Below, in pieces: positions 59,635-61,992 of a DNA stretch of 64,000 nt. Source of the stretch: Escherichia phage UE-S1. The notes under the pieces are model-generated. The model saw nothing but the letters and a program-made list of their open reading frames with translations, had not been told where the DNA came from and did no database searches. The position numbers and the translations under genes were made by a program. Within the stretch, counting starts at the first letter, position 1, and each line of letters begins with the position of its first letter. The stretch is taken from sequence record ON568341.1. One strand, written 5' to 3'.

Positions 59635-59662
59635 TAGACAAACCATAAGAATGTGATATAAT
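59635..59662 (+). promoter_or_regulatory. sigma70-like promoter (TAGACA, 16 nt, TGaTATAAT)
   Basis: Read directly; 42 nt upstream of the ClpA-like ATG. Confidence 0.45.
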
Positions 59663-59703
59663 GTTTATTAATTAGAGTGACGGTGAATCACATAGGAGAA
59701 TAC

Positions 59704-61992
59704 ATGAATCTTACTCAATTGTTCAAAAAAAGCGACGAACTGGCAACATCTCTCGGTCATACATTCTTGACTATTGACCATGTGAGTGCTACAGTACTAA
59801 CCATTGATAGCATCAAGAACGTGTTTGAAGATATGAATATTGATGCAGACAAATTGCATAATCGCTTGATGGACTATCTTAAAAATACATCGGTTCCACA
59901 TGCACCAAAAAGTACAAAAGATGAAGATGCCAATCGTACTTCACTACTAGTAAATCGTGTCGTACATGAGCTTTCAAAAAAATCTGTCATTGAACAACTA
60001 AAAACTGATGATTTTTCGATTGATGCATATTTTGTACTATTTGAATGCTTGTCTTTCCCAAACACTGCACTTGAAGCTGCATTGAAAGAAGAAGGTGTTA
60101 GTTGTACTGAGGCGGCTCGTGCACTACAGAAACATGTTGAGACACTTAATAAGGGTATCAACCTACAAAGCATTAATGATGAACCTACTGGAGATAAAAA
60201 AGTGGCTCAACCACAGCAATCATCTAAACAAAAAGGGTTAGAAGACTACACCACGAATCTAACCGCTCTTGCAAAAGAAGGAAAATTAGATCCGATGATT
60301 GGTCGCCAAAAAGAACTGCGTGCACTGATTGAGACACTCGCTCGTAAAACTAAAAAGAATGCAATTCTTACTGGTGAAGCTGGTGTAGGTAAAACACAAA
60401 TCATTGATGGACTGGCTCAAGCCATCGCTGATGGTAATGTACCTGAACACCTGAAAAATGTTGAAATTCTTTCACTAAATGTTGGTGCATTGACTGCTGG
60501 TACAAAGTACCGTGGTGAGTTTGAAGAACGCATCGATAATTTACTAAAAGAACTAAAGAAACGCGAAAATACTATTGTTTTCATTGATGAAATTCATATT
60601 ATGGTTGGTGCAGGTTCTGCAAGTAATGGCTCTATGGATATGAGCAATATGCTAAAACCAGCACTTTCACGTGGTGAGATTCGTGTGATTGGTGCAACAA
60701 CATACGAAGAATATCGCAAAAATATCGAAAAAGATAGTGCATTAACTCGTCGTTTTATGAAAATTGACGTAGTTGAGCCGACAATTGATGAAACTCGTGC
60801 AATTGTTAATGGGTTAAAGCCAACTTATGAAAAATTCCATAATGTTGAGTTTACATCCGATGCAATGGATGCTGTAATTTCTCTCAGTGATAAATTCCTG
60901 AAGAATAAACACTTCCCTGATAAAGCAATTGACCTAATGGATGCTGCTGCTGCCAAAGTTCGCTCACGTGACAATAATAGTAAGCTTATTACTGCAAGCT
61001 TGGTTCAAGAAGTGGTTGCTGGTATTGCAAACTTAGATATCAATGTGGTTGCATGTACCGAAAGTGAACGTATGCGTAATCTTCCAGATGCACTTCGTTC
61101 ACGTGTATATGGTCAAGATGAGGCTATTCAAAAATTAGTAGATAACGTAATGGTTGCTCGTGCGGGACTACGTGATAAATCAAGTGTTCAGGGTGCATTT
61201 ATGTTCGTTGGTCCATCTGGAACTGGTAAAACTGAAATCACCAAAGCATTAGCTGATGCAACTGGTTCTGAACTTATTCGTTTTGATATGTCAGAGTTTT
61301 CACAAGAACATACAGTATCTAAACTTATCGGTTCACCTCCAGGGTATGTTGGTCATGATTCTGGTAACGGATTACTGCTAGATAAGATCGAACAGTTTCC
61401 GAATGCAGTACTGTTACTTGATGAAATCGAAAAAGCAGATCGTAAAGTACTACTAACCTTCCTACAGGTTCTGGATGAAGGTCGTTTGACTGGTTCACAA
61501 GGAAAAACTGTATATTTTAATAACGTAACTGTTATTATGACTACAAACCTTGGTGCGGCAGATTCAACCAAACGTAGTATTGGTATGAGTGGTAGTGAAA
61601 CTGCTCAAGATAAAGCAATCAAAGCATTTTTACCACCTGAATTCATTAACCGTATTGATAGTATCGTTACGTTTAATGAACTAAGCAGTGAAGCGATTGA
61701 TAGCATCATTGATAAATTTATTGGAAGCTTAAATGACCAAGTAAAAAGCCGTAATGTAAAAGTTACTCTTACAAAAGCAGCACGTGAATGGTTGGCACAA
61801 AATGGTGTACAGGCTGGTATGGGTGCACGACCAATGAAGCGTACAATTGAACAAAACATTCGTGTCCCACTAGCGAAAGAAATGCTGTGTGGAACGCTAG
61901 TGAATGGTGGTAACATCACATTTGATGTTATTAATGGTAAAATTGGTATCAAACCAAAACGTACCAGAACAGTTGAAAAATCACTAGCCTAA
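59704..61992 (+). CDS. ClpA/ClpB-family two-ring AAA+ ATPase (ClpA-like, no long middle domain)
   Basis: ATG after AGGAGAA; D1 Walker [14 protein letters not shown] and Walker B VFIDEIH; D2 Walker [10 protein letters not shown] and Walker [10 protein letters not shown]; Clp N-domain-like start. Confidence 0.8.

Follow-up and report, generated by a model that had tools for sequence, protein, structure and literature searches.

A ClpA-like unfoldase gene with its own promoter in a RaK2-like jumbo phage, and the candidate Clp protease of its lineage

The window analysed in this study, a stretch of 64,000 nucleotides, comes from an Asteriusvirus-like jumbo phage of the 121Q/RaK2-like type and carries a clpA-like gene on its plus strand (Table 1). 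The ATG start codon lies five bases downstream of a Shine-Dalgarno sequence; an earlier GTG (59677) is the alternative start from the program's open reading frame call, and annotated orthologues begin at the ATG. The first-pass annotation had put the product at 763 amino acids, but this figure counts the stop codon, and the protein has 762 residues, compared with 758 for E. coli ClpA. Scans for tRNA genes and Rfam families over the window returned nothing.

Table 1. Features of the clpA-like locus, in window positions; aa, residues of the ClpA-like protein.
Feature	Position	Strand	Remarks
-35-like hexamer TAGACA	59635-59640	+	clpA promoter
Extended -10 TGaTATAAT	59654-59662	+	16 nt past the -35
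Shine-Dalgarno AGGAGA	59694-59699	+	(A/G)AGGA-type motif kept in the alignment of related phages
clpA-like coding sequence	59704-61992	+	762 aa plus stop; ATG start
Clp N-domain, aa 1-150	59704-60153	+	two four-helix repeats
Flexible linker, aa 151-178	60154-60237	+	rich in Q, S and K; 10% identity to E. coli
D1 AAA+ module, aa 179-440	60238-61023	+	50% identity to E. coli ClpA D1
D1 motifs			Walker A GEAGVGKT 224-231; pore loop KYR 268-270; Walker B IVFIDEIH 291-298; sensor-1 region IGATTY 329-334; Arg fingers RR 349-350
D2 AAA+ module plus D2-small domain, aa 441-745	61024-61938	+	46% identity to E. coli ClpA D2
D2 motifs			Walker A GPSGTGKT 503-510 (then E511); pore loop GYVG 547-550; Walker B VLLLDEIEK 569-577; sensor-1 N615 (TTN); Arg finger R650 (NRID); sensor-2 GARPM 707-711
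IGM tripeptide, aa 626-628, D2 loop	61579-61587	+	aligned to E. coli ClpA I617-G618-L619
Bidirectional intrinsic terminator	61996-62026	.	A-run, GGAGAGCA/TGCTCTCC hairpin, T-run; detected on both strands

The same annotation had described the product as a ClpA-like two-ring AAA+ unfoldase, and the motifs, the N-domain and the lack of a middle domain show that this identification is correct. Both AAA+ modules were located with their Walker A and Walker B motifs, and the Walker, sensor-1, sensor-2, arginine-finger and pore-loop motifs are all intact (the D1 pore-loop context reads AGTKYRGEF) and conserved across 112 sequences of the phage clade. Degenerate Walker or sensor motifs had been named as the mark of an inactive pseudo-ATPase; since every motif is intact and conserved, a pseudo-ATPase is ruled out, and the protein is an intact, catalytically competent and probably active unfoldase of the ClpA family. 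The N-domain-like start is also real. Its Pfam Clp_N match is weak (E = 1.8e-4) and its identity to E. coli ClpA is 20%, but the AF2 model (pLDDT 81.5) contains eight helices, and its Foldseek matches are essentially all N-domains of the Clp/Hsp100 family or domains of a related Clp-N fold; the highest target-normalised TM-score, 0.73, is with the N-domain of E. coli ClpA (entries 1r6o, ClpA-ClpS, and 1k6k). Within the linker, residues 157-176 have a pLDDT below 50.

Profile searches place the protein in the same family. The top NCBIfam match is ClpA (TIGR02639, 759.8 bits), colinear over residues 3-740, whereas the ClpB and ClpC matches are broken in two, which bears out the earlier observation that a ClpB-type middle domain is missing. 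The ClpB model (TIGR03346, 638.9 against a cut-off of 1232) and the ClpV/TssH model (TIGR03345, 554.9 against 884.95) each match in two stretches and stay below their cut-offs. Among PDB entries the top match is E. coli ClpA (1ksf, E = 8e-180, colinear over 17-741), with 41% overall identity, and in Foldseek the model of the phage protein matches ClpA-ClpP and ClpC-ClpP complexes. The TIGR02639 score, however, lies under the equivalog cut-off of 993.15, as does the NF008263 score (651 against 1350); on these scores the phage protein is a divergent member of the ClpA family and not an equivalog of bacterial ClpA. It scores 1032.5 bits against phrog_4871, the phage 'ATP-dependent protease' family, with residues 2-755 aligned to positions 11-760 of the 764-position profile. 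Its layout of N-domain, linker, D1, D2 and D2-small domain matches that of E. coli ClpA (1ksf, 1r6b, 6w1z, 7uiv), which is the unfoldase of ClpAP and has ClpS as its adaptor. With ClpB/Hsp104 and ClpC it has in common the N-domain fold and the two AAA+ rings of the class-1 Hsp100 core, but unlike ClpB/Hsp104 it has no coiled-coil middle domain and does have a docking-type loop. ClpB does not carry the ClpP loop.

The promoter proposed earlier for this gene, TAGACA-16-TGaTATAAT, is present, with 11/12 matches plus the TG; it is of the sigma-70 type and is conserved in related phages. The -35 hexamer reads TAGACA or TTGACA among Asteriusvirus relatives and is less well conserved in SE_PL and CBB; the TGnTATAAT element is retained in position in 121Q, vB_Ec-M-J, JNE01, SE_PL and CBB, and the RaK2 counterpart is TTGACA-18-TATAAT. 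There are 15 plus-strand copies of the extended -10 element in the window, ten of them in intergenic spacers, whereas the structural genes adjoining clpA have TAAATA-type motifs instead. Since the non-structural plus-strand genes of the window share the clpA promoter class, expression of clpA may precede, or be separate from, that of the late structural genes. The gene had further been described as flanked by bidirectional terminators, and here only the downstream half of the claim stands. The downstream terminator serves both clpA and a convergent giant structural gene on the minus strand, and its hairpin is preserved through compensatory changes (GAGGGC/GCCCTC in SE_PL, GGGAGCC/GGCTCCC in CBB). 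A terminator scan of the region upstream of clpA found none; the 99-nt spacer there is a divergent promoter region common to clpA and the adjoining minus-strand gene, which starts at 59592 in the ATG-first call or at a TTG, 59604, in the program's list of open reading frames.

The ClpA-like protein is 95.8% identical to 121Q gp581 ('ClpA-like'). At the nucleotide level identity to 121Q-type relatives is only about 90%, so the window phage is a distinct relative, and sequence records contain the identical ClpA protein just twice, on short Logan contigs (15.9 and 38.7 kb). The product of 121Q gp581, PBECO4 and phAPEC6 ('ClpA-like protein', phrog_4871) is the orthologue, and others occur in RaK2, K64-1, GAP32, CBB, 7t3 and XaC1. 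The 121Q-type orthologues, for which Attai et al. is the source cited, have the same length, flanking genes, promoter position and terminator, and their proteins have the same IGM tripeptide and differ functionally at no motif. The gene is already known: more than 40 deposited genomes label it ClpA-like or 'ATP-dependent protease', two comparative papers mention it, and the sequence finding itself adds little. The earlier remark that such unfoldases are uncommon in phages is fair, as 186 of 50,697 phage records match, and in 103 of these the match spans 80% or more of the length.

It had also been suggested that the gene is an independently regulated insertion. A separate promoter class makes independent regulation plausible, but the insertion does not hold. 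Gene order around clpA is the same in six related phages, which belong to three named genera or, in the case of SE_PL, are unclassified, and in all genera checked the gene lies inside a conserved tail/baseplate cluster. The gene next to clpA in the window encodes a virion protein of about 3,300 residues. The GC content of the gene, 0.37-0.40, is the phage value and not that of a host with 51% GC. The phage ClpA clade, at 91 down to 54% identity, is set off by a gap from cellular ClpAs, at about 42%. A recent insertion or moron is excluded by this synteny, GC content and identity gap. The orientation of clpA opposite to its neighbours, together with its own promoter and terminator, would suit a recent host-derived moron, or a degenerating pseudo-ATPase, that plays no part in infection. 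However, with only 41% identity to E. coli ClpA, the same synteny across genera and the catalytic motifs conserved in 112 sequences, we regard such an origin or fate as extremely improbable. Judged by gene order, composition and identity, clpA is not an insertion but an old gene that is syntenic throughout the RaK2-like lineage and adapted to it in composition.

The first-pass annotation had proposed a search for an IGL/IGF loop in D2. Such a loop is found, and it reads IGM. In E. coli ClpA the I617/G618/L619 loop inserts into a pocket of ClpP (bioRxiv 10.1101/820209). At this homologous site the methionine of the phage protein is hydrophobic yet falls outside the classical [LIV]-G-[FL] consensus. 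The loop reads IGM-SGS in the phage and IGL-IHQ in E. coli ClpA; it is about five residues shorter in the phage and lacks I620 and H621, and residues 624-629 have low pLDDT, in keeping with a flexible docking loop. Of the six nearest cellular ClpAs, five have IGF and one has VGF, whereas tripeptides in the phage clade vary widely and include MGM, IGM, IGV, LGM, IGA, LGL, MSM, IGG, MNM and VGF, among others. Most members of the clade, with this phage among them, retain a hydrophobic-G-hydrophobic tripeptide, but IGG, IGA and MNM seem hard to reconcile with canonical docking.

That no ClpP partner is visible holds for the 64-kb window, where tblastn with 121Q proteins and E. coli ClpP and ClpS detected no ClpP, ClpS or other Clp gene; it does not hold for the lineage. 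121Q, the closest complete relative, encodes ClpP (gp464) about 84 kb from clpA and a ClpS-domain protein (gp48), in a survey that covered its genome outside coordinates 250001-278153 and 320586-348532. The gp464 protein matches the whole Pfam CLP_protease profile (E = 4e-41) and shares 36% identity with E. coli ClpP. Its RefSeq label, prohead protease, traces to phrog_94 and was rejected, because the score of gp464 against cellular ClpP (TIGR00493, 151.6 bits) is three times that against the ClpP-related head-maturation model (51 bits); as the genus has a separate prohead protease of the gp21 type, gp464 would not be needed for head maturation. The Ser-His-Asp triad of phage ClpP is intact in all five phages examined, as is the axial-loop motif at its N-terminus. 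Phage ClpP also has a conserved extension of about 20 residues at its C-terminus, and its pocket is only partly conserved with respect to E. coli (Y60 to T/V, F82 to S/Y/C/N/M, L114 to G/T, R192 lost). The ClpS domain of gp48 scores above the Pfam cut-off; the phage ClpS has a 70-residue N-terminal extension and altered residues in the N-degron pocket (N34D, D36P, H66N and M40A, the gatekeeper). Two further 121Q products were seen: gp473 is weakly ClpP-like with an apparently hydrophobic, signal-peptide-like N-terminus, and gp475 is HslV-like.

Roughly the same 70 phage genomes account for all three genes. With a threshold of 60% identity, ClpA occurs in 70 phage records and ClpP in 69, plus XaC1, and the 71 records with ClpS-like matches all fall within the RaK2-like lineage. 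Counts per genus for the three genes nearly coincide (33/33/32 in Escherichia, 10/10/11 in Klebsiella, 8/8/8 in Erwinia phages). The set is conserved in phages of Escherichia, Klebsiella, Salmonella, Erwinia and Yersinia as well as of Pectobacterium, Serratia, Cronobacter and Xanthomonas, and in relatives it is dispersed over three loci.

These findings favour the view, to which we assign a probability of roughly 0.6, that the phage ClpA is the ATPase motor of a phage-encoded ClpA/ClpP/ClpS proteolytic machine. Host RNA polymerase with sigma-70 would transcribe clpA from the extended -10 promoter, presumably before or separately from the flanking late structural genes. ClpA would then assemble into two stacked AAA+ rings, probably as a hexamer, and take in substrates through the divergent N-domain on its flexible linker, probably by way of the lineage's ClpS (the gp48 orthologue). 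The KYR and GYVG pore loops would draw these substrates along the axial channel, and the IGM loops of D2 would dock on a ClpP tetradecamer, in which the substrates would be degraded. The ClpP in question would be the phage's own cellular-type protein (the gp464 orthologue) and possibly also host ClpP. Unlike E. coli ClpA, the phage ClpA would thus have phage-encoded, divergent ClpP and ClpS as its likely partners. The machine could turn over the host proteome, clear early phage proteins or act in quality control. The docking, the contacts with ClpP and ClpS and the substrates are what we infer from sequence. The protease reading draws on domain architecture, motifs, fold, docking loop, conservation of promoter and terminator, synteny and lineage-wide co-occurrence, with the evidence on ClpP and ClpS coming from related phages such as 121Q. 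Counted against it are the variable docking tripeptide, the shorter loop, the partly conserved ClpP pocket, the tail/baseplate location and the ClpA score of 759.8 under the NCBIfam equivalog cut-off. Our literature search found no experiment on any member of the phage ClpA family, and the phAPEC6, Sharanji, fEgEco12 and CBB papers hold nothing functional on ClpA.

The tail/baseplate setting, seen in every genus checked, also suits a chaperone or unfoldase that acts without ClpP in virion assembly, or in remodelling or holding very large structural proteins, with the neighbouring virion protein of about 3,300 residues or tail and baseplate parts as proposed clients. The variable docking tripeptide, weakly constrained to the point of IGG, IGA, MSM and MNM, and the remodelled ClpP pocket leave room for such a role. 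Iyer et al. suggested that ClpA/ClpX of jumbo phages act as translocases or in virion assembly, and the lineage has other chaperone-like genes, the GroES-like gp58 and the DnaJ-like gp457. However, most clade members keep a hydrophobic-G-hydrophobic tripeptide, a cellular-type ClpP and a ClpS-like protein accompany ClpA throughout the lineage, and the promoter class of clpA is unlike that of the adjoining structural genes. In addition, the phAPEC6 ClpA, whose position we infer to be gp246, is missing from the 62 virion proteins of that phage while the flanking gp245 and gp248 are present, although a transient chaperone would still be compatible with this. We therefore consider a ClpP-independent role unlikely.

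A different possibility, implied by the first-pass annotation, is that ClpA only redirects host ClpP, to substrates of the phage's choosing, and that the phage's ClpP homologue does something unrelated. IGM is chemically near the E. coli IGL, and since the phage pocket differs from that of E. coli at Y60, F82, L114 and R192, a canonical-looking loop might suit host ClpP better. In CBB, moreover, ClpP was detected in a virion preparation, though by one peptide at 4.5% coverage. Such hijacking of the host peptidase appears quite unlikely, however, as phage ClpP strictly co-occurs with ClpA and retains its triad as well as the ATPase-contacting axial loops at the N-terminus, and the tripeptide differs among phages whose hosts have near-identical ClpP pockets.

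Returning to the phage-encoded protease, the drifted ClpA loop, the remodelled ClpP pocket (Y60T, F82S, L114G, loss of R192), the C-terminal extension of ClpP and the altered N-degron pocket of ClpS (M40A) lead us to speculate that RaK2-like phages carry a self-contained Clp protease insulated from that of the host; the ClpA N-domain, the putative partner of ClpS, is likewise fast-evolving. We put this forward tentatively, as an idea that is possible but doubtful. If true, the phages would run a degradation programme of their own, free of cross-talk with host ClpA, ClpX, ClpS and ClpP. What makes the locus of interest is the question of why phages of this lineage, with genomes of 350 kb, keep a full set of ClpA, ClpP and ClpS. 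If working and phage-specific, this set would be a virus-encoded system of regulated proteolysis and a natural case of re-engineered ATPase-peptidase and adaptor interfaces. Genes for ClpA-like proteins and ClpP are also present in Agrobacterium phage Atu_ph07, which carries ClpS in addition, and in Pseudomonas phage PA5oct. Their ClpAs are only 38-42% identical to the phage ClpA described here, no nearer than cellular ClpAs, and these Clp sets may be separate acquisitions.

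By architecture and motifs, the product of the plus-strand gene clpA is best placed in the ClpA family of two-ring AAA+ unfoldases, not as an NCBIfam equivalog: its top NCBIfam model is ClpA (TIGR02639), matched in one stretch over residues 3-740 with 759.8 bits, the curated cut-off for equivalogs being 993. The identification as a two-module ClpA made in the first-pass annotation stands, while its length of 763 aa is corrected to 762 aa; the ORF list gives an upstream GTG at 59677, annotated orthologues use the ATG, and an AGGAGA Shine-Dalgarno sequence lies five bases upstream of this ATG. 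Pfam domains follow in the order Clp_N (weak, E = 1.8e-4), AAA, AAA_lid_9, AAA_2 and ClpB_D2-small. Since ClpB, ClpV and ClpK/G models match only in two separate stretches, the protein is a ClpA without a ClpB-type middle domain, as had been proposed earlier. Of the solved structures, that of E. coli ClpA (1ksf) matches best (E = 8e-180), with residues 17-741 colinear; the two proteins share 41% identity overall, which falls to 20% in the N-domain and 10% in the linker and reaches 50% in the first AAA+ module (D1) and 46% in the second (D2).

All catalytic elements are intact and conserved in an alignment of the window ClpA with 112 phage-clade homologues, six cellular ClpAs and E. coli ClpA. 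None of the motifs is degenerate, so the refutation put forward with the original claim, that of an inactive pseudo-ATPase, fails. Modelled at full length with AlphaFold2 (mean pLDDT 79.9, with low confidence at the linker 157-176 and the docking loop 624-629), the protein matches PDB entries of ClpA-ClpP and ClpC-ClpP complexes. Residues 1-160, modelled on their own (pLDDT 81.5, pTM 0.78), form eight helices in two repeats; nearly every Foldseek match is the N-domain of a ClpA, ClpB, ClpC or Hsp104, the rest being a few domains of related Clp-N fold, and the top TM-score normalised to target, 0.73 at 19% identity, is to the E. coli ClpA N-domain in 1r6o (the ClpA-ClpS complex) and 1k6k. These matches indicate that what had been called an N-domain-like start is, on the predicted fold, a real Clp N-domain, the part in which the protein has diverged most.

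Features of the window and of phage 121Q (NC_025447.1), with catalytic elements of the window ClpA taken from the alignment
Feature	Sequence	Position	Strand	Remarks
clpA ORF	window	ATG 59704 to stop ending 61992	+	762 aa
Walker A	window ClpA	aa 224-231; aa 503-510		GEAGVGKT; GPSGTGKT
Walker B	window ClpA			IVFIDEIH; VLLLDEIEK
Pore loops	window ClpA			KYR; GYVG
Sensor-1 residues, Arg fingers, sensor-2	window ClpA	Arg fingers RR 349-350, R650		sensor-2 GARPM
Downstream hairpin of clpA	window	61996-62026	both	scores as terminator
TAAATA-type motif before divergent neighbour of clpA	window	59620-59630	-	minus-strand sense GGTAAATAAAG; invariant in seven phages
TAAATA-type motif upstream of further ORFs	window	ORF starts 43188, 49601, 54026, 23366	-, -, +, +	
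Two tandem consensus promoters, TTGACA-17-TGaTATAAT	window	34592-34629; 34685-34722	+	93 nt apart
757-aa ORF	window	50634-52907	-	orthologue of 121Q gp573, 'colanic acid-degrading protein'
Giant virion structural protein, C-terminal part	window	62028-64000	-	~3,320 aa; 121Q gp582 orthologue
gp48, ClpS-domain protein	121Q	34461-35006		181 aa
gp464, ClpP	121Q	214364-215059		RefSeq label 'head maturation protease'
gp473	121Q	218420-219028		weak ClpP/S49-like; phrog_26024
gp475	121Q	219356-219952		HslV-like; phrog_1040

As an annotation, the gene is already known. Megablast of the 2.4-kb clpA region recovers 45 phage records, all from jumbo phages of 320-385 kb (Escherichia, Salmonella, Klebsiella), with a top nucleotide identity of 90% (121Q, the closest complete relative, PBECO4, phAPEC6, SP27 and others); the protein belongs to phrog_4871 and is 95.8% identical to the 121Q-type protein. 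A search of 5.8 billion proteins reveals a phage clade running from 91% to 54% identity, including RaK2, GAP32, 7t3 and Erwinia and Xanthomonas phages, below which identity jumps to cellular ClpAs at about 42%. Six phages, namely 121Q, vB_Ec-M-J and JNE01 (Asteriusvirus), RaK2 (Alcyoneusvirus), CBB (Mimasvirus) and the unclassified SE_PL, have an identical gene order: a NUDIX hydrolase, a gp15-like tail-sheath stabiliser and a 497-aa structural protein on the minus strand, ClpA on the plus strand, and a virion protein of ~3,300 aa on the minus strand. The clpA gene has held its present position since their common ancestor. This synteny, together with a GC content of 0.37-0.40 that fits the surrounding phage DNA (0.30-0.38), speaks against the earlier view of clpA as an insertion, which we reject.

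Jumbo-phage clpA is mentioned by Attai et al. and by Iyer et al. 2021 (PMC7824862), and our literature search found no experimental work on these phage ClpAs. Iyer et al. regarded jumbo-phage ClpA and ClpX as possible translocases or assembly aids, and described phage ClpP and phage ClpS (CBB_319 cited) as delivering targets to the host's ClpAP. In the published virion proteome of phAPEC6 the neighbours gp245 (382 kDa) and gp248 (51.7 kDa) are present and gp246, the ClpA orthologue expected from gene order, is absent, suggesting that ClpA is probably not packaged; the ClpP of CBB is represented in a virion preparation by a single peptide, too weak to interpret. We consider it unlikely that ClpA serves as an assembly chaperone independent of ClpP, which is one of two main rival readings.

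The likeliest mechanism, with a probability of about 0.6, would be the E. coli ClpAPS mechanism carried out by phage-encoded parts, and the main argument for ClpA working with a phage-encoded ClpP and ClpS is their co-occurrence. Neither ClpP, as stated in the first-pass annotation, nor ClpS was found within the 64-kb window; in 121Q both are annotated outside the window-equivalent stretch, as gp464 ('protease (ClpP-like)') and gp48 ('protease adapter protein ClpS'), along with gp473 (ClpP-like) and gp475 (HslV-like). Tblastn with gp48 returns 71 phage records, all of this lineage, the gp464 search returns 69 at no less than 60% identity plus XaC1 at 45%, and the ClpA search 70 at 60% identity or more. 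Counts of ClpS/ClpP/ClpA by host genus nearly coincide (Escherichia 33/33/32, Klebsiella 10/10/11, Erwinia 8/8/8), and both ClpA and ClpP are also found in more distantly related phages, the PA5oct-like ones and Atu_ph07. The three genes occupy three separate loci, each syntenic in its own right: clpS lies between IF3-like and KTSC-domain genes in 121Q, RaK2, SE_PL, CBB and XaC1, and clpP near DNA ligase and phosphoesterase genes in 121Q, 7t3, CBB and XaC1, its neighbours in RaK2 being hypothetical proteins within the stretch examined.

Sequence comparisons mark gp464 as a cellular-type ClpP: it covers the whole Pfam CLP_protease profile (E = 4e-41), scores 151.6 bits with TIGR00493 versus 51 bits with the ClpP-like model for head maturation, and is 36% identical to E. 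coli ClpP (catalytic positions of the reference sequence verified). The Ser-His-Asp triad and the N-terminal axial-loop motif P-x-V-[IV]-E...ER-x-[YF]-D are conserved in the ClpPs of 121Q, RaK2, 7t3, CBB and XaC1. A separate gp21-type prohead protease is present in the genus, so gp464 has probably inherited its RefSeq label from PHROG.

In the E. coli ClpAP structure, I617, G618, L619 and I620 of ClpA enter a ClpP pocket formed by L23, L48, F49, A52, Y60, Y62, F82, I90, M92, F112, L114 and L189, and the loop also contacts R192 and E26 (bioRxiv 10.1101/820209). E. coli S616-I617-G618-L619 aligns with S625-I626-G627-M628 of the window protein; a docking-type loop, which the first-pass annotation had proposed looking for in D2, is therefore present, and the classical IGL/IGF tripeptide is not, Met replacing Leu in an IGM that falls outside the consensus. 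Relative to E. coli ClpA, five residues are missing from the phage loop, which has no counterpart of I620 and H621. Judged from the alignment, the tripeptide is unusually variable across the phage clade (MGM 16, IGM 15, IGV 11, LGM 9, IGA 9, LGL 8, MSM 8, IGG 5, MNM 5, VGF 5, plus others), the six nearest cellular ClpAs having IGF (five) or VGF (one) and E. coli ClpA IGL. The shorter loop and variable tripeptide temper its reading as docking-type. On the ClpP side, the docking pocket is remodelled: gp464 keeps two of the 12 hydrophobic pocket residues (Y62, M92), substitutes six conservatively (L23M, L48V, F49W, I90V, F112L, L189I) and changes four (A52S, Y60T, F82S, L114G), and R192 becomes Pro. 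All five phage ClpPs, from five genera, share a C-terminal extension of about 20 aa, which ends in a ...RR(G/D)G..(E/D)WV-type (RRGGVEEWV-like) sequence in those of 121Q, RaK2, 7t3 and CBB. The other main rival reading, that phage ClpA purely hijacks host ClpP, seems to us quite improbable.

The ClpS domain of gp48 (residues 74-144; 24.7 bits versus a cut-off of 23) follows a 70-residue N-terminal extension. At N34, D35, D36, T38, M40, H66, E79 and K84, which we take to be the N-degron pocket of E. coli ClpS, the phage proteins retain D35 (S in CBB), T38 and E79, and show N34 to D, D36 to P/N/K, M40 to A/T/E, H66 to N (H in CBB) and K84 to aromatic F/Y (Leu in XaC1). The M40A change in ClpS would broaden specificity to beta-branched N-termini. 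Identity to the window ClpA N-domain is 70% in RaK2, 44% in GAP32 and 27% in XaC1, and ClpS identity to gp48 is 64%, 38% and 35%, respectively; such similar, fast rates are compatible with co-evolving partners but are no proof. Experimental work would be worthwhile only on this lineage-wide ClpA/ClpP/ClpS set, whose interfaces drift.

The clpA promoter TAGACA-16-TGaTATAAT is present just as first described. Its extended -10 position is kept in five of six relatives, and the equivalent site in RaK2 reads TTGACA-18-TATAAT. The window has 15 copies of TGnTATAAT on its plus strand and two on its minus strand; its recurrence in intergenic plus-strand spacers (10/15), with TTGACA, GGGACA or GAGACA preceding several copies, makes it a recurrent promoter class of genes on the plus strand, most of them non-structural. 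Instead, a TAAATA-type motif precedes the start codon by a few tens of bases in several structural genes, the divergent neighbour of clpA among them. This motif resembles the T4 late promoter TATAAATA and may be a T4-like late promoter used by the phage's own sigma factor, which the genus encodes (121Q gp167). The difference in promoter class makes separate timing for clpA plausible. Of the bidirectional terminators once thought to flank clpA, the downstream one holds, its stem being maintained through compensatory substitutions in SE_PL and CBB; the terminator scan found none upstream.

The gp582 orthologue converges on clpA and shares this terminator with it; its frame runs past the window end, the ATG at 63761 in the ORF list being internal. 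The tandem promoters lie in the spacer upstream of a 441-aa ORF at 34893. Both gp473, whose N-terminus is apparently hydrophobic and signal-peptide-like, and gp475, with Thr2 as a possible N-terminal nucleophile, are encoded close to ClpP, and no HslU-type annotation occurs in the roughly 290 kb of 121Q examined. The window is colinear with 121Q (1-2981 to 238349-241331; 2978-7276 to 244761-249081) minus about 3.4 kb at ~2978 (241332-244760 of 121Q), which corresponds to gp507-gp509, annotated as tail fiber or tail protein, and whose absence may reflect a host-range difference between the two phages. Finally, read from its first ATG, the 757-aa ORF would share 119 nt with the upstream 375-aa ORF (52789-53916, minus strand), and its true start probably lies further downstream.
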